Source: an uncultured Chloroflexia bacterium (lineage in GTDB: Bacteria > Chloroflexota > Dehalococcoidia > DSTF01 > JALHUB01). Taken from it: 64,000 nt of DNA. Positions 1 to 22,398 of this stretch are shown in pieces (the first letter of the stretch is position 1; every line of letters begins with the position of its first letter). Both the position numbers and the translations under genes were made by a program. The notes beneath the pieces were generated by a model. The model saw only the letters and a list, made by a program, of their open reading frames with translations, was not told the origin of the DNA and did no database searches. The stretch is from positions 448,001 through 512,000 of the forward strand of contig OY969814.1 in assembly GCA_963703345.1 (NCBI GenBank), written 5' to 3'.

Positions 1-1188
1 GTCCACTATCTCGCGCCGACCGTCGGCGCCAACCACTTCGGGCCCGTGGACGAGATGGCGACGAAGTCACCTCTGCCGCAGATACCCAACGTCACCTTCA
101 CTCGCTTCGAGGTGCCCGGCCTGCCGCGCCGCCTGCCTGCCGGTAGGCATGGTCTGCCCTGGCCGTCGCTGGCGCTCAAGCTCGACCAGAAGATGCGGTT
201 CGCCGCCGCCTTCCCGTTCGTCGCCGCCCGTCGTGCCGAGGAGGCCCTTCGCGCGTCACCGTTCGACCTGATCTACGGCTATGAGGTGCACGGCGTCCTG
301 GCGGCGCGCCTTCTGCGACGCCGCTGGAAGCTGCCGGCCGTCTCGCGTTTCCAGGGTACGGTGATGTACCCGGCGCTGGACAACGTCCTCCTCCGCTTCC
401 GTCGCTACGAGGAAGCGCTCGCCCTGCGCGCGCCCGCCGGCCTCTACATCATGACCAACGACGGTACCCGCGGCGACGAAGTCCTGGCCCGCCTCAACCC
501 GGGCTCTCGGGGCCGCGTCCGCTTCTGGCGCAACGGCCTGGACATGGTCAATCTGAAGCCCGCGGCGCCGCGACAGGCTGTTGCTGCCCGCGAGGCGCTC
601 GGGATCGCCGGAGATCGCTTCATGCTGCTGACGGCCTGCGTCCTGCTGCCCTGGAAGCGTGTCGACCGAGCGATCCGCGCCCTTTCCGCGATTCGCCGCC
701 GGTTGCCGGAGGCGCTGCTGGTGGTGTTGGGCGACGGTGAAGAGCGTGGGCACCTCGAGACACTGGCGCGCGAGCTGCGCGTCGGCGATGCTGTCCGTTT
801 CGAGGGCGCGGTGCCGCAGGCGGACGTCCGCCGCTACCTCTGGGCCGCCGATGTCTTTCTCTCGCTGAACGACCTCTCGAACGCCGGCAACCCGCTCCTG
901 GAGGCGATGGCCTGTGGCAAGCCGATCGTCACCATCGACAACGGCGCCACGGCTGAGCTTATCCGCGACGGCGAGACGGGGTTGCTGCTGCCGTCGGGCG
1001 GGCCGCGGCGCGTCGCTGAAGCCGTCCTGCGCCTCGCGGCGGAGAAGACGGTCCGCCGGCAAGTGGCCAAGGGCGCGCGCTCCTACGCGACGGCGAACTT
1101 CTGGACGTGGGAGCAGCGTCTGGCGGCGGAGCTGGAGGAGGTAGAGCGCCTCGTCGCCAAGCCGCCCCAGGCGCCTGCCCGCCGGTAG
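1..1188 (+). CDS. Glycosyltransferase family 4 (GT-B), 5'-truncated by the window edge
   Basis: Frame is open from base 1. C-terminal GT-B motifs WKRVD and GNPLLEAMACGKP. Confidence 0.9.
   Translation, partial: VHYLAPTVGANHFGPVDEMATKSPLPQIPNVTFTRFEVPGLPRRLPAGRHGLPWPSLALKLDQKMRFAAAFPFVAARRAEEALRASPFDLIYGYEVHGVLAARLLRRRWKLPAVSRFQGTVMYPALDNVLLRFRRYEEALALRAPAGLYIMTNDGTRGDEVLARLNPGSRGRVRFWRNGLDMVNLKPAAPRQAVAAREALGIAGDRFMLLTACVLLPWKRVDRAIRALSAIRRRLPEALLVVLGDGEERGHLETLARELRVGDAVRFEGAVPQADVRRYLWAADVFLSLNDLSNAGNPLLEAMACGKPIVTIDNGATAELIRDGETGLLLPSGGPRRVAEAVLRLAAEKTVRRQVAKGARSYATANFWTWEQRLAAELEEVERLVAKPPQAPARR
132..152. repeat. Palindromic micro-insertion copy 1 (CCTGCCTGCCGGTAGGCATGG, 21 bp), in frame in GT4
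   Basis: Near self-complementary and matches the copies at 1174 and 22218. Removing it gives in-frame LPRRLPW. Confidence 0.7.
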
Positions 1189-1193
1189 GCAGG
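1174..1193. repeat. Palindromic micro-insertion copy 2 (CCTGCCCGCCGGTAGGCAGG)
   Basis: Supplies the current TAG stop of GT4. Removing it leaves in-frame GCG TGA. Confidence 0.7.
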
Positions 1194-1221
1194 TGACTTC
1201 GCCGCCGGAGCCTCGTACACT
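1193..1221 (+). promoter_or_regulatory. Putative sigma70 promoter, leaderless, for the flippase
   Basis: GTGACT-N17-TACACT ending 6 nt before ATG 1228. No clear SD. Confidence 0.4.
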
Positions 1222-1227
1222 AGGGGC

Positions 1228-2603
1228 ATGACAAGGCACGGCGCTCCGGCCCTCCTGAAGTCCCTTCGCGACATCAACTTCGTCTTCGCCACCTACGTCG
1301 CCGGCTACCTGCTGGCGTTTGTGCTGCAGGTGCTCGTGGCGCGCGGTCTGGGCACGAGCGGTCGCGGGACGTACGAGATCGTGCTTCTCACGATGTCGCT
1401 AACGCAGGCCGTGCTGAGCATGGGCGTCGGCGTCGCCAGCCTCTACTACGTCGGCAAGCATGCCTACCCCCTGCGCGATCTCCTGTCGAACAGCCAGTGG
1501 GTCGTCCTGGCGTCGACGCTGCTGAGCGCGCTGGTCGTCCTGGTGGCCGCCGCCACCTTCGGCCCCGGGCTCCTGTCGACCGTGGCGTGCCTTACTGGAT
1601 ATTCGTCTTCGGTATGCCGCTCTTCCTCAACTTCAACCTGCTGATCGCCTTCCTCCAGGCGCAGAACCGCTTCCTGGCAATGAACTCCGTGATCCTCGTA
1701 CGGCCGGCCTTGTTGCTTGCCCTGCTGGTCGGCGGCGTCTTTGCAGGCGGTCTTACGACGACGAACGTCTTCGTCTTCTGGTCGGTCGCGCTGCTCTTCT
1801 CCGTCCTCCTGGCTCTGTCGCTGCTCGGGCTGCGCAACCTGCACCTTCCGACGATTCTGTGGCCGCGGTGGCCCGTGTTAAAGGCGCAGGTGAAGTTCGG
1901 CGTCCAGGGACAGGCCGGGAACATCCTCCAGCTCCTCAACTATCGCGTCGACAAGTACGTGGCGCTTGCTTTCGTTGGCACATCCGGTGTCGGCATCTAC
2001 GCCATCGCCGTCGGCGTCACCGAGAGCATCTGGTTCATCGCCAACGCGGTCTCCGTCGTCCTGGTGCCGCGCCTCACCCGCGCTCATAGGGACGAGGCCG
2101 CGGAGTTGACCCCGCTTTTCTGCCGTCACACCGTCTTCCTGAGCCTGCTGGGCGCCGCCGCAGTGGGCGTGGCCTCGCCCGTGCTGCTGCCGCTCATGTT
2201 CGGCGATGCCTTCTCGCCGGCGGTCGCGGCGGTCTGGTGGCTGTTGCCCGGCACCGTCGCCCTTGCCGCGACGAAGGTCCTGGCCGGCTACATCTTCAGC
2301 CAGGGCAAGCCACTCATCAACAGCTACATCACCGTCGCCAGTTTGGTCGTAACCATCGCTGCGGACCTGGCACTGATCCCGATCTTCGGCGTGCCCGGCG
2401 CGGCGGCAGCCTCATCGCTCGCCTACACGACCTCCCTCGTCCTTAGCCTGGCGGCCTACCAGCGCCTTTCCGGCCGGTCCGCCTGGCGGACGCTCGCCAT
2501 CAACGCCGGCGACCTACGCCTTTACCTGCTTGCCGCCCGCTTCGTCCTGACGCGACGCCCGCCGGCGCAGCCTGTTGCCGGCGACCTGGAGGGCGAAGCT
2601 TGA
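1228..2603 (+). pseudogene. Wzx/MOP-type polysaccharide flippase with a 1-nt frameshift near 1575 (real lesion or assembly error)
   Basis: Hydrophobic N-part in ORF 1228-1644 (ARGLGTSGRGTY) continues in ORF 1497-2603 (NYRVD, VGIYAIA). One added G at ctcctg^tcgac joins them. Confidence 0.8.
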
Positions 2604-3808
2604 GCGAAAGCGCCGATCAGTTGCGGCTCTGCGTTCTGGGCGACTTCGACAGTATCCACACGCGGCGCTGGCTGGAGCCCTTCGTCGAGCGTGGCCACGA
2701 CGTGCACGCCATCTCTTACTACCGGCCGCTGGCGTCGCTCCACGGCGTCACGCTCCACGTCCTCGACGACCGCGGCAATCGGACTACCGGATCGGCCACC
2801 GAGGCGCGAACAAGGACTTCCGCGCGAGTCCCGCCCAACCTGTTACGTCTCGTCAACGCCCTGCGCTATCGACGCCGTGGCCTCGCCCACATGGTACGCC
2901 AGATACAGCCGGACGTCCTGCATGCTCACTACCTGCCGGAATACGGCTTTTTCGCCGCGGCCACCGGCTTCCATCCGCTGGTCGTCAGCGCCTGGGGCTC
3001 CGACGTGCTCGTCGACGCCGACGCGTCGCCGCTGGCCCGCCTGATCACCGCCTACACGCTGCGTCGCGCCGACCTCATCACCTCGAACAACGAGTACATG
3101 AGCGGCAGGCTGCGGGAGATGGGCGTGCCGGCGGAAAAAGTGGCGACGATCGTCTTTGGGCCCGACGCCTTCTATCTGGAAGGCCCGGAAAGCGTTAACG
3201 CACGACAGCCCGAGGCCTCGCATTCGCCGACCGTAATCAGCACGCGTTCGCTGGACTCGCCGCTCTACAACGTCGATCTCATCCTGCGGGCGATGGCGCT
3301 GCTCTGCGCTCGCATTCCGACGGCGCGCTTGCTTGTTGCCGGCGCCGGACGGCTCCGGCCGCGATTGGAGGCGCTGACGCAGGAGATCGGCCTCGGCGAC
3401 AGCGTCTGCTTCCTCGGCTTTCTCGACGCCGCGGCCCTGCGCGACGCCTTCGCCTCGTCGGAAGTTTACGTCTCGGTCCCCAGCTCCGACGGCACATCCG
3501 TCGCGACGCTCTCGGCGATGGCCGCCGGCTGCTTTCCAGTCGTCTCGGACCTACCGACGCAGCACGAGTGGATTCAGGACGGCGTGAACGGCTTCCTCGT
3601 GCCGCCGGGGAATGCGCACGCCCTGGCGCGGCGCCTCGGCGATGCGCTGGACAACGCGGCGTTGCGACGAGAGGCCGCCGCGCGCAATCGTCGCATCGTC
3701 GAAGAGCGTGGCGTCTGGCAGAAGAACGCCCTGCTGATGGAAGAGTGGTACCGGCGCCTGGCGCAGCGAAAGGAAACGCAGGCCGATGCGTCTCTGCTAC
3801 CTGGCTGA
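2600..3808 (+). CDS. Glycosyltransferase family 4
   Basis: SIHTRRW, PDVLHAH, AWGSD and SDGTSVATLSAMAAG motifs. Confidence 0.9.
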   Translation: MSESADQLRLCVLGDFDSIHTRRWLEPFVERGHDVHAISYYRPLASLHGVTLHVLDDRGNRTTGSATEARTRTSARVPPNLLRLVNALRYRRRGLAHMVRQIQPDVLHAHYLPEYGFFAAATGFHPLVVSAWGSDVLVDADASPLARLITAYTLRRADLITSNNEYMSGRLREMGVPAEKVATIVFGPDAFYLEGPESVNARQPEASHSPTVISTRSLDSPLYNVDLILRAMALLCARIPTARLLVAGAGRLRPRLEALTQEIGLGDSVCFLGFLDAAALRDAFASSEVYVSVPSSDGTSVATLSAMAAGCFPVVSDLPTQHEWIQDGVNGFLVPPGNAHALARRLGDALDNAALRREAAARNRRIVEERGVWQKNALLMEEWYRRLAQRKETQADASLLPG

Positions 3809-4856
3809 TGCGCCGTATGTCCACACGGAGCGCTGGGTGCGGCACTTCGTCGATCGAGGCGACGCCGTCAACGTCATCTCCTTCCGGCCGGCGGAGATCG
3901 AGGGCGCCCGCGTCCACTACGTCGACGGCTGGGAGCGAGCGGGTAAGCTGCGCTATCTCATCCACGCCCGACGCGTTCGTCGCCTGGTCCGTTCCCTCGA
4001 GCCGGACCTTGTGCACGCGCTCCACCTGACCAGCTACGGCTTCCTGGCCGCTTTCGCCGGCGTCCATCCGCTGGTCACCTCAGTCTGGGGCACCGACGTC
4101 CTCGAGGCGCCGCGTCTGACGCCGTTCCACTGGCTGATCACCCGTTACGCTCTCGCCCGCGCCGACCGCGTGTCCGCCACGGGCCTGCGGCTGGCCGAGG
4201 CGACGCTGCGCTACATGCCGCAGGGCAAGGACGTCGCCGTTGTCCCTTACGGCGTCGACCTGAGCCAGTTCTCGCCAAGAGAGCGGGGCAGCGACGATTC
4301 CCTGGTCGTCGGCAGCGTCGGCAGACTGTCGCCGGAGAAAGGGCTGAAGTACCTCCTGCAGGCGATGGCGCTGGTTACGCGCGAGGAGCCCCGCGTGCGC
4401 GTACTCCTCGCCGGCGACGGTCCCGAGCGCGGCGCGCTGGAAAGGCTGGCTTCGCGGCTGGGGCTGACCGTCGAGTTCGCGGGCGAGGTGAAGCACGAGC
4501 GTGTGCCCGACGTTCTTGCCCGCATGGACGTCTTCGCTATGCCGTCGACGTGGGAAGGGTTCGGCGTCGCGGCGCTGGAGGCGGAGGCGATGGAAGTGCC
4601 GGTGGTCGCCTCGAACATCCACGGCATACCGGACGTCGTGGAGGACAGCGTCAGCGGCATCCTCGTCCCGCCGAAGGACGTCGACGCCCTCTCGCGCGCC
4701 CTTCTACGCCTGCTGCGCGATGCCGAGGAGAGGCGGCGCACGGGCCGCGCCGGCCGCGAGCTCGTCGCGTCCCGCTACTCCTGGACGGAGAGCACTCGCC
4801 GCATGGAAGCGCTCTACGACGAGCTGCTCTCCGCGCCCGCGGAGCATCGTTCGTAG
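3786..4856 (+). CDS. Glycosyltransferase family 4
   Basis: VGRLSPEKG and EGFGVAALEAEA motifs. Confidence 0.92.
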   Translation: MRLCYLADAPYVHTERWVRHFVDRGDAVNVISFRPAEIEGARVHYVDGWERAGKLRYLIHARRVRRLVRSLEPDLVHALHLTSYGFLAAFAGVHPLVTSVWGTDVLEAPRLTPFHWLITRYALARADRVSATGLRLAEATLRYMPQGKDVAVVPYGVDLSQFSPRERGSDDSLVVGSVGRLSPEKGLKYLLQAMALVTREEPRVRVLLAGDGPERGALERLASRLGLTVEFAGEVKHERVPDVLARMDVFAMPSTWEGFGVAALEAEAMEVPVVASNIHGIPDVVEDSVSGILVPPKDVDALSRALLRLLRDAEERRRTGRAGRELVASRYSWTESTRRMEALYDELLSAPAEHRS

Positions 4857-4958
4857 CTTCGTCGCGGCGCCCCATTGCTTGATCCGCCGCGGCGCCCCAT
4901 GCTAATCTTCAGACGCCCTCGCCGGAAGCTTTGATGGCCACGACTTGACGATAACGAG

Positions 4959-5999
4959 GTGCGCCCCCGAACGATGACGAACGGCACGAAGCCCCTCGTC
5001 TCAGTGCTTGTCCCGATGCGCAACGAGGAGCGCTACATCGAGGCCTGCCTGCGCAGCCTCGCCGAGCAGGATTATCCGCGCGACCGCTTCGAAGTGCTGG
5101 TTATCGACGGCGACTCGACCGACCGCTCGCGAGAGCTGGCGCAGCGCTTCGCCGCTGTTGCCGGAATCGACCTCCGCCTTCTCGACAACCCGGCGCGGAG
5201 GACGGCGCCCGGCCTCAACGTCGGGCTGGTGGCCGCCCGCGGCGAGGTCATCGTCCGCGTCGACGCCCACGCCGAGGTCTACTCGGACTTCCTCAGCGAG
5301 AGCGTCACGACCCTGGAGGAGACCGGCGCCGACGCTGTGGGCGGGCCAATCGAGAGCGTCGCCGAAGGGCTGGTCGGCGAGGCGATAGCGCTGGCTATGT
5401 CCTCCCCGTTCGGCATCGGCAACGCCCACTTCCGTTACAGCCACGAAGCCTGCTACACGGACACGGTCGCCTTCGCCGCCTACCGTCGCGACGTTTTCGA
5501 GCGCATCGGCGTCTTCGCCGAGGATATCGACTACGGCGAGGACGATGAGTTCAACTACCGCCTCGGCGAGCACGGGGGCCGGATTCTCCTCACCCCGCGC
5601 ATCCGCTCCATCTACCACACGCGTTCCGACCTGCCGGCGCTGTTCCGTCAATACAGGGCCTACGGTCGTGCCAAGTTCCACGTTCTGCGCCGCCACCCCG
5701 GCCAGGCGCGGCTGCGGCAGTTCGTGCCGGCGTCGTTTCTTGGGACCCTGGTCGGCCTGTCGCTAACGTCGCGAATCGTCCGCCCCTTGCGACGGGCGCT
5801 GCCGCTGGTGCTGGGCCTCTATGCCGTCGTGGCCGTCGCCGCGTCGCTGCGGATCGCCTCGCGGAACGGCTGGCGATACGCGCCGGTGCTGCCGCTGGCC
5901 TTTGTTTGCCTGCACGTGTCGTATGGCCTGGGCTTCCTGGAGAGCCTGCTCGCCGCAAGGCTGTCCACGTCCACGCCGGACGTTCGAGGGGAGGAATGA
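4959..5999 (+). CDS. Glycosyltransferase family 2 (ExoA-like); alternative start ATG 4974
   Basis: VLVPMRNEE, IDGDSTD, RVDAH and GEDDEFN motifs, with C-terminal TM helices. Confidence 0.9.
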   Translation: MRPRTMTNGTKPLVSVLVPMRNEERYIEACLRSLAEQDYPRDRFEVLVIDGDSTDRSRELAQRFAAVAGIDLRLLDNPARRTAPGLNVGLVAARGEVIVRVDAHAEVYSDFLSESVTTLEETGADAVGGPIESVAEGLVGEAIALAMSSPFGIGNAHFRYSHEACYTDTVAFAAYRRDVFERIGVFAEDIDYGEDDEFNYRLGEHGGRILLTPRIRSIYHTRSDLPALFRQYRAYGRAKFHVLRRHPGQARLRQFVPASFLGTLVGLSLTSRIVRPLRRALPLVLGLYAVVAVAASLRIASRNGWRYAPVLPLAFVCLHVSYGLGFLESLLAARLSTSTPDVRGEE

Positions 6000-6000
6000 C

Positions 6001-7197
6001 ATGACGCAATCGCAGCCCGGCGAGGCGGCGACGCGGCAGGAGCTTCCGCCGCTGCCCTTTTGCCGGCCCGACATAACCGAGGACGAGATCAACGAAGTCG
6101 TCGACACCATCCGCTCCGGCTGGCTGACGACCGGTCCAAAGACGCGTCTTTTCGAGGAGCGCTTCCGCGACTACGTCGGCAGCCGCTACGCCGTAGCCGT
6201 CAGCTCCTGCACGGCGGGATTGCATCTCATGCTCATGGCCGCCGGCATCGGCGAGGGCGACGAGGTGATAACGACGCCGCTTACCTTCTGCGCTACCGTC
6301 AACACCATCATCCTCCAGCGCGCGACGCCGGTCCTCGCCGACATCTGCCTGGACGACTACAACATCGATCCGCAGCAGGTCGAGGCGAAGATCACGCCGC
6401 GGACGAAGGCGATTGTCGCCGTCCACTACGGCGGTCAGCCCTGTCGCATGGACGAGCTGGCGGAGATTGCCCGCCGTCACAACCTCCTGCTGTTCGAGGA
6501 TGCCGCCCACGCCTCCGGCGCGTCCTATCGCGGCAAGATGATCGGCTCCATCGGCGACGCCACGGCTTTCAGCTTTTACGTCATCAAGAACATGACCACC
6601 GGCGAAGGCGGCATGGTCACCACCAACAACCCGGAGCTCGAAGACAAGGTGCGCCTGCTGCGGCTGCACGGCATGAGCCACGACGCCTGGAAGCGCTATG
6701 ACGCCAAGGGCTCCTGGTACTATGAGATCCTCGCCTGCGGCCTCAACTACAAGATGACTGACGTGCAGGCCTCGCTGGGCCTTCACCAGCTCGCCCGGCT
6801 GGACGGCTTCATCGAGCGCCGGGCGCAGATCGTCGCGGAGTACAACCGGCGGCTGGCGCGACTGCCGGAGCTCGTCCTGCCGAAAGCCCGCCCGGAGATC
6901 CACCACGCCTGGCACCTCTACCCGGTCTGGCTGCAAGGCGAGGGGCTACGCATCGGCCGCGACGAGTTGATCGAGGAGCTGAAGGCGCGCGGCATCGGCA
7001 CGTCGGTGCACTTCATCCCGATTCACTACCATCCCTACTATCAGCAGACGCTCGGCCTCAAGCAGGGGGACTACCCGAACACTGACCGCCTGTTCGCCGG
7101 CTTGCTCTCGCTGCCGCTTTTCCCGCTGATGACGGACGGAGACGTCGCCCGCGTGAGCGACGCCGTAGAGGAGATCATTGTCAACAACCGACGCTGA
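6001..7197 (+). CDS. DegT/DnrJ/EryC1/StrS PLP sugar aminotransferase
   Basis: SSCTAGLHL, EDAAHA and FSFYVIKNMTTGEGG (PLP lysine). ATG at 6001 follows GAGGA. Confidence 0.93.
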   Translation: MTQSQPGEAATRQELPPLPFCRPDITEDEINEVVDTIRSGWLTTGPKTRLFEERFRDYVGSRYAVAVSSCTAGLHLMLMAAGIGEGDEVITTPLTFCATVNTIILQRATPVLADICLDDYNIDPQQVEAKITPRTKAIVAVHYGGQPCRMDELAEIARRHNLLLFEDAAHASGASYRGKMIGSIGDATAFSFYVIKNMTTGEGGMVTTNNPELEDKVRLLRLHGMSHDAWKRYDAKGSWYYEILACGLNYKMTDVQASLGLHQLARLDGFIERRAQIVAEYNRRLARLPELVLPKARPEIHHAWHLYPVWLQGEGLRIGRDELIEELKARGIGTSVHFIPIHYHPYYQQTLGLKQGDYPNTDRLFAGLLSLPLFPLMTDGDVARVSDAVEEIIVNNRR

Positions 7198-12492: not shown

Positions 12493-13484
12493 CGGCGGCA
12501 AACGGGAAGCGCAAGCTCCGCGCCGGTGTCATCGGCTTCGGTTCGATGGGAGCGAACCACGCCCGCGTCTACGCCGAGATGGAAGGCGTGGAGCTGGCTG
12601 CCGTCGCCGACGTGTCACCCGAACGTCTAGCGCGGGCCGCGACCGCCGCGACAATCTATGACGACTACCGCCGAATGCTCGCCGAAGAGCGCCTCGACCT
12701 CGTTTCCGTCTGCGTCCCGACGCTGCTGCACCACGAGGTCGCGCTCGCGACGATTCGAAGCGGCATCGCCCTGCTCGTCGAGAAGCCGATAGCGGCGACG
12801 CTGGAAGAGGGGCGGAACATGGCGCGGGCGGCGCGAGAGGCGGGCGTCCCGCTGATGGTCGGCCACGTCGAGCGCTTCAACCCCGCGGTGCTGGAGGTCA
12901 AGCGCCTGCTAGCCGCGGGCCGGCTCGGGCGCGTCTTCCAGGTGTACGCCCGTCGCACCGGCCCCTTCCCGCAGCGCGTCCGCGACGTAGGCGTCGTCCA
13001 CGACCTGGCGCCGCACGACATCGACATCATGTCTTTCCTGCTGGAATCGCCGGTGGAGCGGGTCTACGCGGAGACCTTGCGCGGCATAAGCACCGAGCAT
13101 GAGGACCTACTCTCCGGCGTCTTGCGCTTTCTCAGCGGCGTCATTGGCATCCTCGACGTCAACTGGCTAACGCCGCTGAAGGTCCGGCAACTGGCGGTCC
13201 TGGGCGAAAAAGGCCAGCTCCAGGCCGACTACCTCTCGCAGGAGGTGCGCTTCCATCCGAAGGAAGGCGAGGCTGCAAGAGCCGCGTCGCCGGAGCTGGT
13301 CCGGGTCGAAAACAAGGAGCCGTTGCGTCTGGAGATGGAGGCGTTCGTGGAGGCCGTGCGCAGCGGCCGCGAACCGCCGGTCACGGCCGAGGACGGCCTG
13401 TCGGCGCTGGAGATCGCCTCGCTGCTCGTGGAATCGGCGCGCCGGGGCGAGGTGATGACGTTGGAACCGCGGAGAGCCGGCTGA
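12489..13484 (+). CDS. Gfo/Idh/MocA oxidoreductase (WbpB-like)
   Basis: GFGSMG, EKP, GHVERFNPA and DLAPHDID motifs. GTG start overlaps the upstream TGA. Confidence 0.9.
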   Translation: MTAANGKRKLRAGVIGFGSMGANHARVYAEMEGVELAAVADVSPERLARAATAATIYDDYRRMLAEERLDLVSVCVPTLLHHEVALATIRSGIALLVEKPIAATLEEGRNMARAAREAGVPLMVGHVERFNPAVLEVKRLLAAGRLGRVFQVYARRTGPFPQRVRDVGVVHDLAPHDIDIMSFLLESPVERVYAETLRGISTEHEDLLSGVLRFLSGVIGILDVNWLTPLKVRQLAVLGEKGQLQADYLSQEVRFHPKEGEAARAASPELVRVENKEPLRLEMEAFVEAVRSGREPPVTAEDGLSALEIASLLVESARRGEVMTLEPRRAG

Positions 13485-14755
13485 TGGGCGAGTTTTCGGT
13501 GTGCGTTATCGGGCTGGGCAGGATTGGCCTGCCGCTCGCCGTCCAGTGTGCTTCGAAAGGGATGCGCGTGACCGGTGCCGACATTGACGCCGCCCTTGTC
13601 GAGAAGATCGACGCCGGCGTCTGTCCCTATCCGGACGAGGCCGGCCTCGCGGAGGCGATGCGGTCCGCTCACGAAGCGAGCCGCCTGAGCGCGACGACCG
13701 ATACGACGGAGGCGGTGCGCCGGAGCAACTTCGTCGTCATCGTCGTGCCGGTGGGCCTCACGGTAGAGAAGCATGCCGACTTCGCCGCCCTCGACGCTGC
13801 TGCCCGGGCTGTTTCCGCCGGCCTTCAGCCGCAGACGCTGGTCTTGCTGGAGACTACCGTTCCCCTCGGCACGACGCGCCGTCGGCTGGGTGCAGCGCTG
13901 GAGGCGTCCGGCCTGCGGCTCGGGAGCGACCTCTTTCTTACCTACAGCCCGGAGCGGGTCTTCGTCGGCCGCGTCCTTATGGACCTGCGCCGCTACCCCA
14001 AGATCGTCGGCGGCGTGGACGACGAGAGCGCGCGTCGCGGCGTCGCCTTCTACGAGAGCGCCCTCGATGCGCCCGTCCTCAGGCTCGCGAGCTGTGAGGC
14101 GGCAGAGCTCGTGAAGCTGGCCGAGACCACGTACCGCGACGTAAACATCGCCCTCGCCAACGAGTTCGCCCGCATCGCCGATGAGCATGGCGTGGACGTT
14201 ACGGAGGTGATAGCGGCCGCCAACTCGCAGCCGTTCTCACACATCCACCAGCCGGGCGTGGGCGTCGGCGGCCACTGCATCCCCGTCTACCCGCGCTTCC
14301 TGCTTGAAGGCGCAGCGGCAAGGCTGCCGGAGGCGGCGCGCGAGATCAACGACGGCATGGCCGCCTACGCCGTCGAAAAGCTGGCGCAGGCGCTGGGCGG
14401 ACTGAAGGGCAAGACTGTTATAATCCTCGGTCTCTCCTACCGGCCCGACGTGAAAGAAGCCGCGTTCTCCAGCGCTTTCCTCTTGGCGAATGAGCTTACG
14501 GCGCGAGGAGCGCGCGTTCTAGTCCACGATCCGCTTTTCAGCGTCGACGAGGTGCGGGCGCTGGCATTGGAGCCGTCGGAGCCCTTTCCGCCCACGCACG
14601 CCGACGCCGTCATCGTCCAGGCTTTCCACGAGGCATATCGGGAGCTTGACTTTCGCGCCTTCCCCGGCTGTCGGATCGTCCTGGACGGGCGCGATGCGCT
14701 GTCGCGGGAGAGGGTCGAAGCGATGGGGTTGCGCTATCTGGGGATCGGGCGCTAG
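13484..14755 (+). CDS. UDP-N-acetylhexosamine 6-dehydrogenase (WbpA/WecC family)
   Basis: GLGRIG, YSPER, KLAETTYRDVNIALANE and GVGGHCIP motifs. Confidence 0.92.
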   Translation: MGEFSVCVIGLGRIGLPLAVQCASKGMRVTGADIDAALVEKIDAGVCPYPDEAGLAEAMRSAHEASRLSATTDTTEAVRRSNFVVIVVPVGLTVEKHADFAALDAAARAVSAGLQPQTLVLLETTVPLGTTRRRLGAALEASGLRLGSDLFLTYSPERVFVGRVLMDLRRYPKIVGGVDDESARRGVAFYESALDAPVLRLASCEAAELVKLAETTYRDVNIALANEFARIADEHGVDVTEVIAAANSQPFSHIHQPGVGVGGHCIPVYPRFLLEGAAARLPEAAREINDGMAAYAVEKLAQALGGLKGKTVIILGLSYRPDVKEAAFSSAFLLANELTARGARVLVHDPLFSVDEVRALALEPSEPFPPTHADAVIVQAFHEAYRELDFRAFPGCRIVLDGRDALSRERVEAMGLRYLGIGR

Positions 14756-14851
14756 GCCAATCCGCGAGGATATCAAGAGGTCGCAAAGACGCAGCGACAC
14801 ACGCCACACCGACGCGATTCGTGTTTGCCCTAGACCAGGCGGCTGGAGAAC

Positions 14852-15064
14852 CTACCGGTAGCGGGGAGTGTGCAGCGCGCCGCTAGTAATGGGTTCGTCC
14901 ACATAAAGGTCCCCGTTGCGGATCTTGATGTTGAAGCCGCAATCGGGGTTCGTGCAGGCCCATGCCTTGTAGTGAATAGGTGCGCCCTGACTGCCGAAGT
15001 CAGAAAGTGGCACCAGGTCTCCTGCCTTGCACTTCTGACACTTGGGTAATACCGGGATGTCCAC
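14852..15064 (-). CDS. Small Cys4 (CxxC...CxxxxC) putative zinc-ribbon protein, 70 aa
   Basis: GGAGGTGG SD before GTG, own promoter, CQKC and CTNPDC. Confidence 0.75.
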   Translation of the reverse strand: MDIPVLPKCQKCKAGDLVPLSDFGSQGAPIHYKAWACTNPDCGFNIKIRNGDLYVDEPITSGALHTPRYR

Positions 15065-15175
15065 GAACCACCTCCCCAGCCAGCATCGCCCTTGCCACCC
15101 ACCTCATGTCCTCTGGCACGGGCGACAGGCGGGCCTTCGCGTCCCCGCCCCCGCGGCAGGTCTTACGATGGCCGG

Positions 15176-15205
15176 AGTATAGCAGAGCAGATCGCAATTT
15201 GGCAA
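15176..15205 (-). promoter_or_regulatory. Promoter of the Cys4 gene
   Basis: TTGCCA-N18-TATACT with extended -10 TG. Confidence 0.55.
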
Positions 15206-15416
15206 CAGTTTCCCATGCGGCGGTATTTAGGAAGGGCATCTTTTTCGCCAAATCCGGTCGTGACAGCACGCGAGATCGGCGTCGGTGTTCAGACTCCTGT
15301 TAGCACTCTCTTAACAATTCCTTGTTGCTGGTTTATCCCTTTCGGCCCGATAATCTAAACACGTGGCAGGCATGCCTTCGCCTGATTGCGCGTGCCTACC
15401 CCTCTATTTAACGCTG

Positions 15417-15445
15417 TTGATAGTGTACAATTGTTGCGATAGGTT
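15417..15445 (+). promoter_or_regulatory. Putative leaderless promoter of the response regulator
   Basis: TTGATA-N17-TAGGTT ending 6 nt before ATG 15452. No SD. Confidence 0.45.
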
Positions 15446-15451
15446 GTAAGC

Positions 15452-16150
15452 ATGCCATCACGCGTCTTGGTCGTCGACGACGAACGCAACATCGTCCAAC
15501 TCGTGCGCCTCTACCTGAGCAAGGAGGGGTTCGACGTCGACAGCGCCTTCGACGGCAAGCAGGCCCTCGACAAGGTCCACAGCCATCGCCCGGACATTAT
15601 CGTCCTCGACATCATGATGCCGGAGATGGACGGCCTCAGCGTTTGCCGGGAGCTGCGCAAGACCAGCAACGTGCCAATCATTATCCTTACGGCCCGCACC
15701 GACGACGTCGACAAGGTCGTCGGGCTGGAGCTGGGTGCCGACGACTACGTGACGAAGCCCTTCAACCCGCGCGAGCTCGTCGCCCGCGTCAAGGCCGTTC
15801 TCCGTCGCAGCCAGGGCGCCGCTGAGCCCGCTCTCGTCCTGGAATCCGGCGACGTGCGCCTCGATGTCCCCCGCCGTGAGGCGACGCTCAAGGGCGAGCC
15901 GCTCAATTTGCGCGCCAAGGAGTTCGACCTGCTTGCCGCTTTCATGCAAAACGAAGGCCTCGTGATGGACCGCGAGAGGCTGATCCAGCGCGTATGGGGC
16001 CACGACTTCTACGGCGACAGCCGGACGATAGACGTGCACGTCGCCTGGCTCAGAGAGAAGCTTGCCGGCTCCAGCGTACAGATCCAGACGGTCTGGGGTA
16101 TTGGCTACAAGCTCGTGGTGACATCAGATGTTGGCGAGCCTCAGAAGTAA
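15452..16150 (+). CDS. OmpR/PhoB-family response regulator
   Basis: VVDDE, LDIMMP, GADDYVTKPF and winged helix RTIDVHV...TVWGIGY. Confidence 0.95.
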   Translation: MPSRVLVVDDERNIVQLVRLYLSKEGFDVDSAFDGKQALDKVHSHRPDIIVLDIMMPEMDGLSVCRELRKTSNVPIIILTARTDDVDKVVGLELGADDYVTKPFNPRELVARVKAVLRRSQGAAEPALVLESGDVRLDVPRREATLKGEPLNLRAKEFDLLAAFMQNEGLVMDRERLIQRVWGHDFYGDSRTIDVHVAWLREKLAGSSVQIQTVWGIGYKLVVTSDVGEPQK

Positions 16151-17582
16151 ACTCATCCTGGCGTTTGCCGCCGTCATCTTCCTTTGCCTCCTGTCGGCGG
16201 GCAGCGCCTTCGTGCTCTTCCTTCGCAATCATGAGACCGAGCAAGCGCGGGAGAAAGTCGGCCGTCTGGCGCAGCCTATCGCCCTGCGCGTGACCTACCT
16301 TGAGTGGAACGGCCTCTCGCCGGAAGATATGCGGCCCTACCTCCAGGACTACGCCTCCAGCGTCGACGTCCGCATCCTGCTGGTCGACAAGGTGACCTCG
16401 AGCGTCCTCGTCGACACCGAACAGCGGCTGGAGGGTCAAACGGTGCAGCCGCTGGAAACTTCCGGCGGCAACGAGCGCGTGGGCCCGATCTGGGTCCGAC
16501 AGGTGAAATTCGACGCCGGCGGTGAACACCTTCTCCTCTACACGCCGCTCGATAGCGTAACCACGCAGCCGCCGAGCGCCGAGCTCCTCAGTCGCTATCG
16601 CGCGGTGGTGGCCGTCCCCGAAGCGACGATCAACTCCGCCTGGCGCGATGTCTTTCCCGGCGTCGGTATCGCCGGCGGAATAGCGCTTCTCATCTCGGTG
16701 GTAATCGCATTCATCCTCTCCCGCTCCATCTCCGGCCCCCTCGACGAGATCACCCGCGCTTCCGAGGAGATGGCGTGCGGCAACTTCGACCAGCAGATCG
16801 CCGTGCGCGGCCGCGACGAGGTCGCCCGCCTGGCGACGGCCTTCAACGCTATGGCCCGGGAGGTCAACCAATCGCAGGCGACGCTGCGTCAGTTCCTCGC
16901 AGACGCCTCCCACGAGCTGCGTACGCCGCTCACGTCCATTCAAGGCTTCAGCCAGGCCATGGCGGAGGGCGCCATCGATCAGCCGGCGGAGATGTCGGAT
17001 TCGGCTCGCATAATAAACGAGGAGACGCAGCGAATGCGCGCCCTCGTCGACGATCTTCTCTACCTGTCGCAGATCGAAGGCGGGCAGGCCAGGATACAGC
17101 CCGAGCCGCTGAAGCTGGACAACCTCCTGCGCGACTGCGTCGAGCGATTTCAGCGGCGGGCGCAGGAGAAGGGTCTTCAGGTCAAGACCGACCTGCCGCC
17201 GCTTCCTCCGCTGCAGGGCGACGTGCGCCGCCTGGAGCGCGTCTTCTCCAACCTGCTCGACAACGCCATCAGGCACACGCCGAAAGAGGGCGCCATAACC
17301 GTCGCCGCGGAAGCCGCCAACGGCAGCGTGCGCGTCGGCATCCACAACACCGGCTCCTGGATACCGCCGGAACATCTGCCCCACGTTTGCGAGCGCTTCT
17401 ACCAGGTCAACAAGTCGACGAACGACGAGGGGCACACCGGCCTCGGCCTGGCGATCGCCTCCGAAGTCGTCCACGAGCACGGCGGCACGCTGTCGGCGCA
17501 GAGCTCGCAGCGCGACGGGACGGAGTTCAGCGTAACCCTGCCGCTGACAGGCCCATCTCCGGCGTCACCGACTCCAGCCTAG
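16128..17582 (+). CDS. Sensor histidine kinase (2 TM, HAMP, HisKA, HATPase)
   Basis: ASHELRTPL, NLLDNAI and GLGLAI motifs. Confidence 0.95.
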   Translation: MLASLRSKLILAFAAVIFLCLLSAGSAFVLFLRNHETEQAREKVGRLAQPIALRVTYLEWNGLSPEDMRPYLQDYASSVDVRILLVDKVTSSVLVDTEQRLEGQTVQPLETSGGNERVGPIWVRQVKFDAGGEHLLLYTPLDSVTTQPPSAELLSRYRAVVAVPEATINSAWRDVFPGVGIAGGIALLISVVIAFILSRSISGPLDEITRASEEMACGNFDQQIAVRGRDEVARLATAFNAMAREVNQSQATLRQFLADASHELRTPLTSIQGFSQAMAEGAIDQPAEMSDSARIINEETQRMRALVDDLLYLSQIEGGQARIQPEPLKLDNLLRDCVERFQRRAQEKGLQVKTDLPPLPPLQGDVRRLERVFSNLLDNAIRHTPKEGAITVAAEAANGSVRVGIHNTGSWIPPEHLPHVCERFYQVNKSTNDEGHTGLGLAIASEVVHEHGGTLSAQSSQRDGTEFSVTLPLTGPSPASPTPA

Positions 17583-17696
17583 CCGCCGCAATCCGGCACG
17601 GGACTTGACCGGTTCCGCCTTGACTGGCATTCTGGTGACGAATTCCAATTCTTCCATCTGACTTGATCGGACCCAATTTGCGGAGGAAAGGCTACC

Positions 17697-19253
17697 ATGA
17701 TTGTCACCAGCTACTGGCCCAGTCAGGCGCCCTACGAGGAGATACCGCTCTACGAGTTGCTTAGGCGAACGGCGAGCACACAGGGCGGCAAAACGGGCGT
17801 GATAGGGGCGGATGGTACTACCCGCACCTACGAGCGCATCTGGAGCGACGCCCGCAAGGTGGCGCGCCTCCTTCAGGACAACGGCATCCAGAAGGGCGAC
17901 AAGGTCGGCATCTTCTCACCCAACCATATCGATTTCCCCGCCGTGTTCTTCGGCTCGCTCCTCGCCGGCGCAACCGTCACCACGCTCAACCCGTTGTATA
18001 CGCCGCATGAGATTGAGCACCAGCTCTTGGACGCCGAAGCGGTGATCCTGTTCGCCTTCTCGTTTATGAGGCCCGCTGCCGAGGAGGCCCGCAAGAACCT
18101 CCCTCTGCTCCGCGACATCTTCACCATCGACGCGCTGCCAGGGCTCCTGGAGGGCGTGTCCGAAGAGTACCGTCCGGTAACCATTAACCCCCGAGAGGAC
18201 GTCGCGGCCCTCCCCTATTCCAGCGGCACAACCGGTCTCCCCAAGGGGGTCATGCTCACACACTACAATATCACCTGCGATGTCAAGCAAGGGCACGGGA
18301 CGAGGGAGATACCGCCGGACATGATAGGCCTCTGGTTGCTCCCCTTGTTTCACATCTATGGGATGACCGTGCTCATGAGCAGTGGCATCGCGAGCGCCAA
18401 CACGGGCGTTGTTATGTTGCGCTTCGACGTCGAGCAGATGATGCAGCTCATCGAGAGGTACCGGATCACCGACCTCTATCTCGCCCCGCCGGCGATACTA
18501 GCGATGGTCAACCTGCCGGATCCTTCCCGCTACGACACGTCGTCGCTGCGGCTCATCAGCTCAGGGGCGGCGCCGCTGGCGCTGGAGCTGGGCGAGCGGG
18601 CGAAGGCGATGTTCAAGTGCATCGTCTCGCAAGGGTATGGCATGACGGAGACTAGCCCCACGGTCAACACCCAGCCGTTCGAAAAGATAAAGCTGGAGTC
18701 GGTCGGTCCGCCCTTCCCGGACACTCTGGAGAAGATCGTTAGCCTGGATAGCGGCGAAGAGCTGCCCGTCGGCGGCGTCGGCGAGCTGATGGTGAAGGGT
18801 CCGCAGGTCATGAAGGGCTACTGGAACAACCCGAAGGAGACGGCGGACTGCCTGACGGACGACGGCTGGCTGCACACCGGCGACATCGCCCGCTTCGACG
18901 AGGACGGTTATCTGTACCTCATCGAGCGGAAGAAAGAGATGATCAAATACAAGGGCTATCAAGTAGCGCCGGCGGAGTTGGAGGCATTGCTCTACCAGCA
19001 TCCCGCGGTGCTTGACGCGGCGGTTATACCGAAGCCGGACGAGGCGGGCGGTGAGATACCGAAAGCGTGCGTCGTGCTAAGGCCGGAGAAACAGGCGAGC
19101 GCCGAAGAGCTGATGGCGTTCATCGCTGGGAAAGTGGCGCCGTACAAGAAGATCCGCGAAGTTGAGTTCATGGACGCCATACCGAAGACGCTATCGGGCA
19201 AGATACTGCGTCGCGACCTGATCCAGCGGGAGAAAGAGCGCCTGGCCAAGTAG
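17697..19253 (+). CDS. Acyl-CoA ligase (4-coumarate-CoA ligase-like), copy 1
   Basis: YSSGTTGLPKG, GYGMTE, WLHTGD and GKILRR motifs. Confidence 0.93.
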   Translation: MIVTSYWPSQAPYEEIPLYELLRRTASTQGGKTGVIGADGTTRTYERIWSDARKVARLLQDNGIQKGDKVGIFSPNHIDFPAVFFGSLLAGATVTTLNPLYTPHEIEHQLLDAEAVILFAFSFMRPAAEEARKNLPLLRDIFTIDALPGLLEGVSEEYRPVTINPREDVAALPYSSGTTGLPKGVMLTHYNITCDVKQGHGTREIPPDMIGLWLLPLFHIYGMTVLMSSGIASANTGVVMLRFDVEQMMQLIERYRITDLYLAPPAILAMVNLPDPSRYDTSSLRLISSGAAPLALELGERAKAMFKCIVSQGYGMTETSPTVNTQPFEKIKLESVGPPFPDTLEKIVSLDSGEELPVGGVGELMVKGPQVMKGYWNNPKETADCLTDDGWLHTGDIARFDEDGYLYLIERKKEMIKYKGYQVAPAELEALLYQHPAVLDAAVIPKPDEAGGEIPKACVVLRPEKQASAEELMAFIAGKVAPYKKIREVEFMDAIPKTLSGKILRRDLIQREKERLAK

Positions 19254-19293
19254 GGGAGGTTCGCGTCCTCGATGAGTGGAGGGAGGTGACGGC

Positions 19294-20847
19294 ATGATCG
19301 TCTCCAGTTACTGGCCCAGTCAAGCGCCGTACCAGGAAGCCCCGCTGCCGGACATCCTCCGCAAGTCCGCGGAGACCTTCGGCGAGAAGACCGCGCTGAT
19401 CAGCGCCGATGGCTCGACGCGCACTTACGCCCGCGTTCTCAGCGACGCCCGCAAGGTGGCACGCCTCCTCCAGGACAACGGCGTCCAGAAGGGCGACAAG
19501 GTCGGCATCTTCTCGCCCAACCACATCGAATACCCGGCCGTCTTCTACGGCTCGCTCCTCGCGGGCGCCACGGTTACGACGCTCAACCCGCTCTACACGG
19601 CGCACGAGATCGCGACCCAGCTCAGCGACGCGCAGGCCGTCTTGCTGTTTGCCTTCACGCCGATGGCCGCCGCCGTCGAAGAAGCGCGCAAGGACCTGCC
19701 GCTCCTCCGCAAGGTCTTCCCGATAGACGACCTCCCTTCGGTCCTGGAAGGCGTTTCGGAGGGCTTCCAGCCGGTAGAGATTGTTCCCAAAGAAGACATC
19801 GCTGCCCTTCCCTACTCCAGCGGCACCACCGGCCTGCCCAAAGGCGTGATGCTAACCCACTACAACATCTTCTCCAACGTCACCCAGGGGCTGGCCACGC
19901 GCTTCTTTAGCTCGGACATGGTGGGCCTCTGGACGCTGCCCCTCTTCCACATCTACGGCATGACGGTGCTGATGAGCGCCGCCGTGGCCCGCGGCGGCAC
20001 CGGCGTGGTGATGGCGCGCTTCGACGTCGAACTGATGCTCCAGCTCATCCAGCAGCACAGGATAACCGACCTCTATCTGGCGCCGCCGGCCATCCTGGCG
20101 ATGGTGAACGCTCATCCCGAGCGCTACGACACGTCGTCGCTCCAGGTGATCGGTTCGGGCGCGGCGCCGCTGCCGCTGGAGATAGGCGAGCGCGCCAAAT
20201 CGCTGTTCAAGTGCATCGTCTCGCAAGGGTATGGCATGACGGAGACGAGCCCGACGGTCAACACGAACCCCTTCGAACGCATCAAGCTGGAGTCGGTCGG
20301 CCCACCCTTTCCGGACACCCTGGAGAAGATCGTCAGCCTGGACAGCGGCGAAGAGTTGCCCGTCGGCGGCGTCGGCGAGCTGATGGTGAAGGGTCCGCAG
20401 GTCATGAAGGGCTACTGGAACAACGCCAAGGAGACGGCGGACTGTCTTACCGACGACGGCTGGCTGCACACCGGTGACATCGCCCGCTTCGACGAGGACG
20501 GCTACCTGTACCTCATCGAGCGGAAGAAAGAGATGATCAAGTACAAGGGCTACCAGGTAGCGCCGGCGGAGCTGGAGGCGCTCTTGCACCAACATCCCGC
20601 GGTGCTTGACGCGGCGGTTATACCGAAGCCGGACGAGGCGGGCGGAGAGATACCGAAGGCCTGTGTCGTCCTGAAGCCGGAGAGCAAGGCGAGCGCCGAA
20701 GAGTTGATGGCGTTCATCGCCGGGAAAGTGGCGCCGTACAAGAAGATCCGGGAAGTGGAGTTCATGGACGCCATACCGAAGACGCTATCGGGCAAGATAC
20801 TGCGTCGCGACCTGATCCAGCGGGAGAAAGAGCGGCTGGCCAAGTAG
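19294..20847 (+). CDS. Acyl-CoA ligase (4-coumarate-CoA ligase-like), copy 2
   Basis: Same motifs. GGAGG SD before ATG 19294. Close paralogue of copy 1. Confidence 0.93.
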   Translation: MIVSSYWPSQAPYQEAPLPDILRKSAETFGEKTALISADGSTRTYARVLSDARKVARLLQDNGVQKGDKVGIFSPNHIEYPAVFYGSLLAGATVTTLNPLYTAHEIATQLSDAQAVLLFAFTPMAAAVEEARKDLPLLRKVFPIDDLPSVLEGVSEGFQPVEIVPKEDIAALPYSSGTTGLPKGVMLTHYNIFSNVTQGLATRFFSSDMVGLWTLPLFHIYGMTVLMSAAVARGGTGVVMARFDVELMLQLIQQHRITDLYLAPPAILAMVNAHPERYDTSSLQVIGSGAAPLPLEIGERAKSLFKCIVSQGYGMTETSPTVNTNPFERIKLESVGPPFPDTLEKIVSLDSGEELPVGGVGELMVKGPQVMKGYWNNAKETADCLTDDGWLHTGDIARFDEDGYLYLIERKKEMIKYKGYQVAPAELEALLHQHPAVLDAAVIPKPDEAGGEIPKACVVLKPESKASAEELMAFIAGKVAPYKKIREVEFMDAIPKTLSGKILRRDLIQREKERLAK

Positions 20848-20884
20848 GCACCCGTTTCTCCCGATCCGCCTGCGATTCCGAAGA

Positions 20885-20961
20885 GTAGAGGAAGGCTTCA
20901 GCCTTCCACATCGAGTGTGCGCGGACGAGGCGTGAGGTGGAGGGCTAAAGCCCTCCTCTAC
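20885..20961. repeat. Inverted pair of GTAG-type REP-like palindromes
   Basis: GTAGAGGAAGGCTTCAGCCTTCCAC ... GTGGAGGGCTAAAGCCCTCCTCTAC. Confidence 0.7.
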
Positions 20962-20977
20962 TTTTGTCCGTCGGCAG

Positions 20978-21013
20978 AAAAAGAAGAGAGGCGGGACAAC
21001 TCCCGCCTCTCTT
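20978..21013 (-). terminator. Intrinsic terminator between convergent genes
   Basis: 13-bp stem AAGAGAGGCGGGA-caac-TCCCGCCTCTCTT. The A-run on + gives a U-tail on -. Confidence 0.75.
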
Positions 21014-21086
21014 GCAATTTCTAACAGAGTCCCTTCCTGCCCTTACGCAGGCCTTGATTTCGCTTTCCCGTGATCGCTAGGCTATC

Positions 21087-21917
21087 CTAGCGTGCCCGCT
21101 TGACGAGCACCGTGCCCGAGGCCAGCAGCAGGACGCCGCCCAGCAGACCCAACGCAATCGGCAGCGTGTTTGAGCCGCCGGACGATGGTCCCGTGCCGGT
21201 GGTCGGTACCGTTACCGACGGGGCAATAACCGGCGGAATCACCGGCCGGGCCGTCGGGATCACGACCGTCGGCATGGGCGTTGACGTTGGGCCGGCCGTC
21301 GGCGTCTCAGTGGCGCCCGATACCGTGATTCTGGCGCTGTCGCACTTCAGGTTGGCGGGCTCGGTGATGCACGCCTCGTTGGTTATCCTGTCGCCGTCGC
21401 TCGCGCCGGAGGTCAGGTCAAGGGACAGATCGACGACAATCTGGTCACCACTGTTGAGGGTGGAGGTGGTGCTCCACGTAACTGTCCCCGAGGTGTCGCA
21501 GCCGTCGATCGTAAAGTGGCTGTCGGAGATGTCGGAGGACGAATCGACGCTGGCGTCAGAGCAGTCAGTGTCGCTCGGTATGACATCGCTGACTTCCATC
21601 GTCGGCGTGCAGTCGTTGTCGCCGTCGTTGGTCACTGTGATGGTGTAGTCAGCGGTGCCGCCTTCCGGCACGGTCGAGTCTGAGACGTCCTTGGTGATAC
21701 TAAGGTCGCAGACGGGAGTTGCCGTCGGCGTCACCGGCGTGTTCGTGCTTGTCGGAGCCGTCGTGTTCGTCGGGGTAGCCGTCTCGCCCTGGGCGTTCGC
21801 GACGGGCGGGCTGATCGACCCGCTGCCTGACGACAGCATGACCGCTACCATAACTAGGGCGAGCCCCGCTCCCGCGGCCACCGCCCACAACCAGGATCCC
21901 TTCCATAGTCTTTCCAT
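21087..21917 (-). CDS. Secreted DUF11/Ig-like domain protein with Pro/Thr linkers and sortase-like C-terminal signal
   Basis: Signal peptide, DLSITKDVSD..YTITVTNDG..VSDVIP, then VPTTG + TM + KRAR. AAGGAG SD before ATG 21917. Confidence 0.8.
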   Translation of the reverse strand: MERLWKGSWLWAVAAGAGLALVMVAVMLSSGSGSISPPVANAQGETATPTNTTAPTSTNTPVTPTATPVCDLSITKDVSDSTVPEGGTADYTITVTNDGDNDCTPTMEVSDVIPSDTDCSDASVDSSSDISDSHFTIDGCDTSGTVTWSTTSTLNSGDQIVVDLSLDLTSGASDGDRITNEACITEPANLKCDSARITVSGATETPTAGPTSTPMPTVVIPTARPVIPPVIAPSVTVPTTGTGPSSGGSNTLPIALGLLGGVLLLASGTVLVKRAR

Positions 21918-22161
21918 ACTGAGTCTCCTTCTCAACTAGTGTCCGCCGCGGCGGACGCATGCGGTCCCCGCCTTTTACAAACGATATTGTGAACGATGAG
22001 CGGAATCTTTGTCAAGTCCGCTGCATCGGGGATGAATAGCTCCTGATCCGTTGCTGTTCCCCGGCAGAGCCGGGACAGAAGGGAAAGTCGGAATTTGTAA
22101 CAAATTCTGAGAGAAAATCGCTTGCCGTAGCCGAGAAGACTGCCTGCCTACGCTGTGGCAA

Positions 22162-22398
22162 TTCTGAGGGATAAATCCCTCAGCCTGTGTCCGGCACAGC
22201 TTCTGCCGAAGGCTGAGCCTGCCTGCCGGTAGACAGGGCTTCCAACCCTCAGAACCGTTTCCCCTCCCCACGTCGCCCCTAAGCGATTGGAATGCCCGGC
22301 GCCGCGAAGGCGGCGCAGAGAATCAGTTCTGAGGGTTAAAACCCTCAGCCTTCGCCAACAACGTTCTTCTGGGAGGCTGAGGGACTCATCCCTCAGAG
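22162..22398. repeat. Cluster of four CTGAGGG-N6-CCCTCAG hairpins arranged as two inverted pairs (BIME-like)
   Basis: Units at 22162-22186, 22210-22255 (interrupted), 22326-22352 and 22374-22398. Confidence 0.75.
22218..22237. repeat. Palindromic micro-insertion copy 3 (CCTGCCTGCCGGTAGACAGG) nested in a hairpin unit
   Basis: Splits the left arm of hairpin unit 2. Removing it restores a unit like its three siblings. Confidence 0.7.

Follow-up and report, generated by a model that had tools for sequence, protein, structure and literature searches.

A palindromic DNA element of 20 or 21 nucleotides in an uncultured Chloroflexia bacterium and the search for its mover

The window analysed here, 64,000 nucleotides of an uncultured Chloroflexia bacterium (contig OY969814.1, positions 448,001 to 512,000), contains three copies of a GC-rich palindromic sequence of 20 or 21 nucleotides, which comparison with related genomes identifies, almost certainly, as an insertion element. 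Sites that are filled in one genome and empty in another differ mostly by exactly the length of the element, and the insertion is blunt. An earlier note, written from the DNA letters alone, had suggested a very small, non-autonomous insertion element that leaves no target duplication and can land in coding sequence; the comparisons bear this out. The element is likely among the smallest DNA elements that move. The positions in the window that are referred to below are the following, with repetitive extragenic palindromic sequences abbreviated as REP.

132-152, forward strand: copy 1, 21-nucleotide form, in frame in a GT4 glycosyltransferase gene, which gains seven codons (LPAGRHG)
1174-1193, forward strand: copy 2, 20-nucleotide form with one mismatch, directly before the ancestral TGA stop codon of the same GT4 gene as copy 1
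22218-22237, forward strand: copy 3, 20-nucleotide form with one mismatch, in the 5' arm of a REP-like hairpin
1-1188, forward strand: GT4 glycosyltransferase gene (Pfam PF00534) hosting copies 1 and 2, its 5' end beyond the window
22208-22252, forward strand: REP-like host hairpin, split by copy 3, with 22 intact copies genome-wide
22164-22183, 22329-22348 and 22377-22396: intact relatives of the host hairpin of copy 3
13906-13918, forward strand: empty target site in the open reading frame at 13484-14755, where the relative G001 has an in-frame 21-nucleotide copy

Copies, empty sites and blunt insertion

In agreement with the earlier note, the three copies are found on the forward strand (132-151, or 152 for the longer form, 1174-1193 and 22218-22237), each with one mismatch to the pattern proposed there and each preceded by a G. 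When the window was shuffled 100 times, the mean number of matches was 0.02, and three were reached in none of the shuffles. The genome of the window (G000) is a single contig of 2.28 Mb with 64% G+C and a completeness of 96%. The genome-wide count against a background that had been suggested gave 5, 13 and 17 strand-hits of the oriented consensus at 0, 1 and 2 mismatches, respectively, while six simulated fifth-order Markov genomes each gave 0, 0 and 0. A scan with both length forms detected 21 sites within two differences, 15 of them of 21 nucleotides, 4 of 20 nucleotides and 2 ambiguous; five copies in G000 are perfect and probably young.

The 20-nucleotide form reads CCTGCCTGCCGG(T/C)AGGCAGG, and the 21-nucleotide form has one extra base before the final GG (T 167, C 19, A 11 and G 10 times, a tally biased to T by the search patterns). 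Since comparison with empty orthologues gives a net gain of 21 nucleotides and every copy that ends in CATG is followed by a G, both forms exist. The single length of 20 base pairs assumed in the earlier note did not hold: the copy at 132-152 is the longer form, with a net gain of 21 over its empty orthologue.

Copy 1 is missing from the orthologues of four genomes (G002, G003, G007 and G008), with a gap of exactly 21 nucleotides; the other four orthologues have a loop of different shape with a net difference of 18. Copy 2, through which the gene gains four codons and, at 1186-1188, a new TAG stop, faces a clean 20-nucleotide gap in G002, G003 and G006. The empty sites expected in sister genomes were thus seen at both positions of the glycosyltransferase gene. 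For the host hairpin of copy 3 no orthologue was found in the five loci compared, and its empty state was read from the 22 paralogous hairpins in G000. The same position of this hairpin family carries ten more insertions in G002, G003 and G007, two of which are empty in G000 at a net difference of 20. The proposal that excision restores a sensible ancestor at all three sites agrees with the empty orthologues for copies 1 and 2 and, for copy 3, with the paralogous hairpins. Bases 136-450 are identical in a contig of sequencing run X1, possibly the source sample, and no empty allele of window positions 1-1500 was found in four contig sets that cover the region in part. No RNA data set was listed as containing the sequence.

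At the site of copy 2, G001 carries a copy with further short inserts nested in its loop (L038). Since G002 and G003, both empty here, are closer to G000 than G001 is, this points to repeated insertion or precise loss at this site.

For a broader comparison, 82 sites in five relatives were compared with G000; 53 had no two-sided orthologue and 1 was too short. Among the remaining 28 sites, 5 are shared and the other 23 lack the element in G000. These empty sites differ by exactly 21 nucleotides in 18 cases and by exactly 20 in 1, while 4 are off by 1-3 nucleotides. After excision of the element, 16 of the 18 sites with a difference of 21 align gap-free, while at 3 of the 19 exact-length sites the junctions are blurred by older or partial copies. 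Three further copies in G000 have an empty orthologue in at least one relative. Sites that come from a single genus and a single repeat family are not, however, independent of each other.

Among exact 21-mers, 55 of 118 do not follow a G and 58 of 118 do not precede a C. With about half of them lacking either neighbour, the terminal bases belong to the element itself, and the insertion is blunt. A six-base target duplication was ruled out, since copies with altered first bases are not matched by the flank downstream. The earlier statement that flanking direct repeats are absent holds in so far as no true target duplication is present, but the 21-nucleotide form is often followed by bases resembling its own first six; in copy 1 the following bases match 5/6 of the element's start.

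Distribution, host sites and target preference

Within one mismatch, the element was detected in 14/17 genomes of the family and in 3/23 genomes from other families of the order, and a scan of 300 other genomes of the phylum yielded no exact match. Its carriers belong to at least nine phyla, among the matches listed Patescibacteria, Bacteroidota, Acidobacteriota, Omnitrophota, Methylomirabilota, Desulfobacterota, Nitrospirota, Planctomycetota and Chloroflexota. Fifty carriers from other groups have 1 to 113 copies per genome. Viral contigs contain 54 loci with the 20-nucleotide pattern and 12 loci with the 21-nucleotide pattern. At the end of one viral contig, eleven perfect 21-mers are arranged head to tail (L637:915-1142), which may be an assembly loop.

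The two forms differ in where they reside. Of the 21-nucleotide copies 19/50 lie in coding sequence, versus 1/53 of the other copies (Fisher P 2e-6), as judged by a self-trained codon model that misses genes and with sites that are not independent. The sole coding case among the other copies is copy 2, at the stop codon; 20-nucleotide copies are mostly located in spacers, in tRNA fragments and in REP-like hairpins. Beyond this family, at least 120 loci of other organisms contain the exact 21-mer. In no fewer than 16 of these 120, Pfam domains of the same protein are found on both sides in one frame. The in-frame hosts include SecA (profile positions 76-157 and 155-244 on the two sides) and NAD-dependent ligase (3-96 and 98-163), as well as RpoC, LeuRS, ProRS, Fmt, Pth and aldolase. 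In genes the 21-nucleotide form uses all five stop-free frames and occurs in both orientations. As all five open frames are in use, the encoded peptide looks like a tolerated passenger. Through such insertions, essential proteins of uncultured bacteria acquire loops of seven residues, with consequences for their annotation and alignment.

In genes of Patescibacteria such as leuS and pth (L060, L116, L121, L071, L134) the element lies inside in-frame heptamer repeat tracts, so that several repeat families accumulate in the same protein loops.

Insertion of the 21-nucleotide form shows a target bias. The junction G^C is 5.8-fold over background, C before the cut is rare (4/119) and a purine is preferred there; only position -1 is strongly biased. 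The next six bases resemble the first six of the element, within the family (3.6 vs 1.9 matches, n=37, z 9.8) and outside it (2.1 vs 1.4, n=114, z 6.6), and the empty alleles also show this resemblance (3.4 vs 1.8 of 6, n=16). The empty site at 13906-13918 of the window, for example, matches 2+5 bases of the element's end-to-start junction (L299 compared with G000 461911-461912). For the 20-nucleotide form, the preceding bases resemble the element's end within the family (3.1 vs 1.7, n=18). When copies of this form from other phyla were used as a test set, the purine at -1 was the one feature to persist (19/22).

Two rules for the 20-nucleotide form were rejected. The same target motif shifted by one base gave a z of about 0, and a strict G^G or G^T rule, which fits 13/13 viral copies, fits only 8/22 in the other-phyla test set.

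The element is frequently hosted by REP-like hairpins and other small hairpins, by tRNA fragments and heptamer arrays, and by its own older copies. Head-to-tail dimers make up 33/84 distinct matches of a junction pattern, in a search that selects for dimers. Reconstructed, that is modelled, empty targets are predicted to fold 0.7-2.2 kcal/mol better than base shuffles. Among the tRNA hosts, G000 contains eleven copies of the 3' end of tRNA-Val (C1:1252833-1259609, 1919384-1921883, 1981943 and 2126189), many about 1.2 kb apart, and in G001 and G006 the element enters the T-loop of such copies.

We infer a functional role for the hairpin. Pair 8:13 is the only one of the stem that varies among G-T, G-C and A-T, with G-T in 341/483 sites, many of which were retrieved by patterns that fix the G-T base of this pair. 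Several observations weaken the case for the hairpin and for a general target that resembles the element's ends: the folding z-scores of the three window copies are weak (-0.5 to -1.5), 147 variants contain 0 compensatory changes and 1 same-pair double change with about 7 expected by chance, the end-resemblance of the 20-nucleotide form is absent in the test set from other phyla (1.5 vs 1.4, n=22), and a contiguous match to the junction is missing at 31% of the 21-nucleotide sites of other genomes.

A possible mechanism and its alternatives

The mechanism that we favour, tentatively and as somewhat short of probable, is that a non-coding single-stranded DNA hairpin of 20 or 21 nucleotides depends for its movement on a nuclease or strand-transferase that acts in trans and whose gene lies elsewhere, with small stand-alone GIY-YIG proteins as the leading, unproven candidate. 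The donor would be a folded single strand with an 8-bp stem and a 4-nucleotide loop, the 21-nucleotide form having one bulged base beside the terminal GG. Cleavage would occur at the foot of the stem, and the strand would be joined to target DNA that is itself single-stranded and nicked, with help from a short stretch of the target that pairs with the ends of the element. Copies of 20 nucleotides would be purged from genes by selection because they shift the frame, while 21-nucleotide copies would be tolerated in variable loops. Cutting of single-stranded DNA by a GIY-YIG family beside its own hairpin repeat is described in passages of PMC11893778. Small GIY-YIG proteins are candidates slightly ahead of HUH enzymes. 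We hold it possible, with less confidence than the mechanism itself, that this is a minimal mobile element with undescribed machinery: a single-stranded hairpin, unchanged across phyla, that finds its targets partly by end pairing and whose longer form colonises essential genes, moved by an undescribed short-DNA integrase or by a GIY-YIG nuclease acting as a transposase.

In carrier genomes the element lies within 500 nucleotides of 9/106 small GIY-YIG genes, 8 of the 9 being adjacent to a tRNA. At 8/55 loci it is located in displaced tRNA copies beside such genes, compared with 1.2 expected for uniformly distributed copies, and at several tRNA-adjacent loci the insert amounts to exactly 20 nucleotides relative to the neighbouring intact tRNA. 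The following results count against the GIY-YIG candidate. The excess is not significant if the copies are taken as intergenic (5.5 expected, P 0.19), and the tRNA scars may be sinks, not sources. Element-bearing GIY-YIG genes are scattered on the tree (9 changes for 10 rows, 224/500 shuffles being as low), and no cognate clade was found on a quick tree of 92 columns. By hand count, small GIY-YIG genes occur in 13/18 carriers and in 15/23 non-carriers; none was found in G010, a 97% complete genome with 22 copies. A GIY-YIG gene is near only 1/204 element loci. The element is also present in 4/60 Y1-transposase loci, in 2 of these inside other hairpins. In sum, no enzyme is tied to the element, which equally weighs against the proposed mechanism.

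The neighbourhoods of the element were also scanned, with the longest frame taken on each side. Neither the 229 open-frame fragments beside the 120 genome loci nor 80 open reading frames beside viral copies, from which one further frame had been left out, included a transposase or integrase family. Two further candidate movers were dropped: no DUF559 protein was found in G000, and the four-helix-bundle IVS protein is over the cut-off in 1/18 carriers versus 16/23 non-carriers.

Stand-alone small GIY-YIG genes of G000 adjoin tRNA-Ser and tRNA-Asn (C1:1147890-1148970 and C1:1810250-1811190; L237, L238), the genes being those at C1:1148037, 1148648 and 1810487. At these loci other small hairpins break up duplicated tRNA pieces, either in the T-loop or in the anticodon arm, and next to tRNA-Asn three such interrupted 5' halves stand in tandem. 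This layout of a GIY-YIG gene and interrupted tRNAs recurs at about half of 123 sampled small GIY-YIG genes. A second group of small GIY-YIG genes (L243, L244, L246, L258, L263, L267, L268, L378) has flanking inverted repeats that start with GTCAT or GTCGT; these resemble Ssn-family loci.

Movement of the hairpin in trans by a Y1 HUH transposase, either RAYT or the TnpA of IS200/IS605, is unlikely, although it is the best placed of the alternatives. Its chemistry would fit, as HUH enzymes insert without target duplication and recognise single-stranded hairpins according to passages of PMC11893778. The element often resides in REP-like hairpins, Y1 genes have some of these hairpins at their flanks, and 42/50 carrier genomes from other groups have a match to PF01797. 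The co-occurrence with RAYT genes proposed in the earlier note was not borne out: PF01797 is present in 12/18 carriers and 16/23 non-carriers, and it was not found in six genomes, namely the single-contig G000 as well as G002, G006, G012, G015 and G037. As G000 still has REP-like hairpins although no Y1 gene was found in it, such an enzyme may have acted in the past, but the five perfect, probably young copies of this genome speak against it. Both the GTAG/CGTC tag and a fixed target tetranucleotide are missing, and only the 4/60 Y1 loci mentioned above hold a copy.

Less likely still, no dedicated enzyme may be needed, with replication capturing free single-stranded copies or switching template via microhomology. 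This would resemble SPDIR (short-patch double illegitimate recombination), in which ectopic single strands anneal at microhomologies during replication, as described in 10.1101/2023.11.22.568220. The likeness of 21-nucleotide targets to the element's ends, the common head-to-tail dimers (33/84 in the dimer-selecting search) and the fact that none of five protein families tested tracks the element are in agreement with host capture. The microhomology is missing at many sites, however, and up to 113 copies per genome together with a patchy spread (14/17 in the family, 0/300 in the phylum) fit a lineage-limited factor better.

A route through an RNA copy and a reverse transcriptase has reportedly been proposed for the small dispersed repeats of cyanobacteria. 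Here it is improbable. The G-T pair at positions 8 and 13 of the commonest stem variant (341/483) would be a G-U wobble in RNA, and copies are found in tRNA loops. No match to the reverse transcriptase family PF00078 was detected in G000, insertions show neither a target duplication nor an untemplated tail, and both orientations occur in genes and in tRNA fragments.

We regard integration of a circular form of the element by an IS110-family recombinase as very unlikely. IS110 elements target REP-like sites without duplication; the family (PF02371) is present in G000 and in 8/18 carriers versus 3/23 non-carriers. It was not found in 10/18 carriers, however, the kin among them are not independent, and the IS110 locus of G000 has only a 10-nucleotide junction match that was judged to be chance. 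A double-stranded circle of 20 base pairs is, moreover, physically implausible.

Chance GC-rich palindromes or an assembly artefact, for which the 64% G+C of the genome and the possible assembly loop behind the 11-copy viral array might be cited, can practically be dismissed, refuted as they are by filled and empty orthologues and opposed by a background of zero, by a length form that follows the reading frame and by orthologous copies that are shared yet diverged between separately assembled species.

Relation to known small repeats

By analogy, the element seems to work most like the small dispersed repeats (SDRs) of cyanobacteria and, in genes, like the Rickettsia palindromic elements (RPEs). 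Elhai et al. reportedly described in 2008 SDRs of 21-27 nucleotides in heterocyst-forming cyanobacteria, dispersed and recently mobile. These are said to be embedded in heptamer repeats, in other small elements and in their own copies, with a secondary structure that is reportedly backed by compensatory changes. The present element, at 20-21 nucleotides, is likewise dispersed, has filled and empty orthologues within one genus and nests in heptamer arrays, other small repeats and its own copies; no mover was found for either. Compared by the descriptions of SDRs, not by their sequences, it differs in being one sequence shared by at least nine phyla and by viral contigs, with a frame-preserving 21-nucleotide twin. 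As for compensatory double changes, 147 variants of the element showed 0, and pair 8:13 alone varies among G-T, G-C and A-T. Passages of PMC5861425 report SDRs only in the Nostocaceae lineage, and cyanobacterial SDRs are also cited in a passage of PMC2884548. Like RPEs, the element is palindromic DNA placed in frame within housekeeping genes and read as an extra peptide. With RPEs listed at about 105-146 nucleotides in a passage of PMC3184786, it is five to seven times shorter; unlike them, it uses all five open frames and is not limited to one genus.

With REPs and REPINs, as described in passages of PMC3733652 and PMC3116915, the element shares a short, GC-rich, dispersed palindrome, a 20-nucleotide form that is mostly intergenic, the lack of a target duplication and a high copy number (21 in G000, up to 113 elsewhere). 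In contrast to these, judged by flank composition it has no GTAG/CGTC tag, it flanks no RAYT gene and does not co-occur with PF01797, and it inserts into REP-like hairpins instead of being one. A non-autonomous derivative of IS200/IS605 was rejected, as no fixed tetra- or pentanucleotide is found 5' of the insertions, where only position -1 is strongly biased. The same applies to a MITE (miniature inverted-repeat transposable element) mobilised by a DDE enzyme: there is no target-site duplication, and the net gain equals the length of the element. MITEs have terminal inverted repeats around a spacer, and they measure 70-300 bp according to a passage of PMC3733652, whereas the element has 20-21 nucleotides.

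The Ssn system, as far as passages of PMC11893778 describe it, combines a hairpin repeat with small single-domain GIY-YIG proteins, both of which also occur in the genomes studied here, and it offers a chemistry for cutting single-stranded DNA. The element differs from its repeats in lying outside the SRM motif of that source and in flanking no single nuclease clade (cd10448). The SRM expression used found almost no flanks of the known type either and is insensitive to the repeats themselves. Only 1/23 Ssn-like genes on the tree has the element beside it, inside that gene's own repeat.

No description of the element's sequence or of its peptides was found in the literature covered, which excludes most subscription papers and supplements. 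As far as searched, the element is undescribed and constitutes a further variant of the very-small-repeat elements. For the cyanobacterial and the Rickettsia cases of such small repeats, no enzyme was found in the literature covered. How repeats of less than 30 bases move becomes testable here because the sequence is fixed, the ends are exact, many filled and empty pairs exist, the targets are biased and carriers occur in many phyla. If an enzyme of this kind exists, the scarless insertion of 20-21 bases would make it a useful tool.

Four REP-like hairpins of one family are clustered at window positions 22164-22396, downstream of glyA, and 66 bases before copy 3 a stretch of 12 bases (22140-22151) resembles half of the element, possibly a decayed copy. 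G000 also has a second, GTAG-tagged hairpin family with 11 copies, though it contains no Y1 transposase match.

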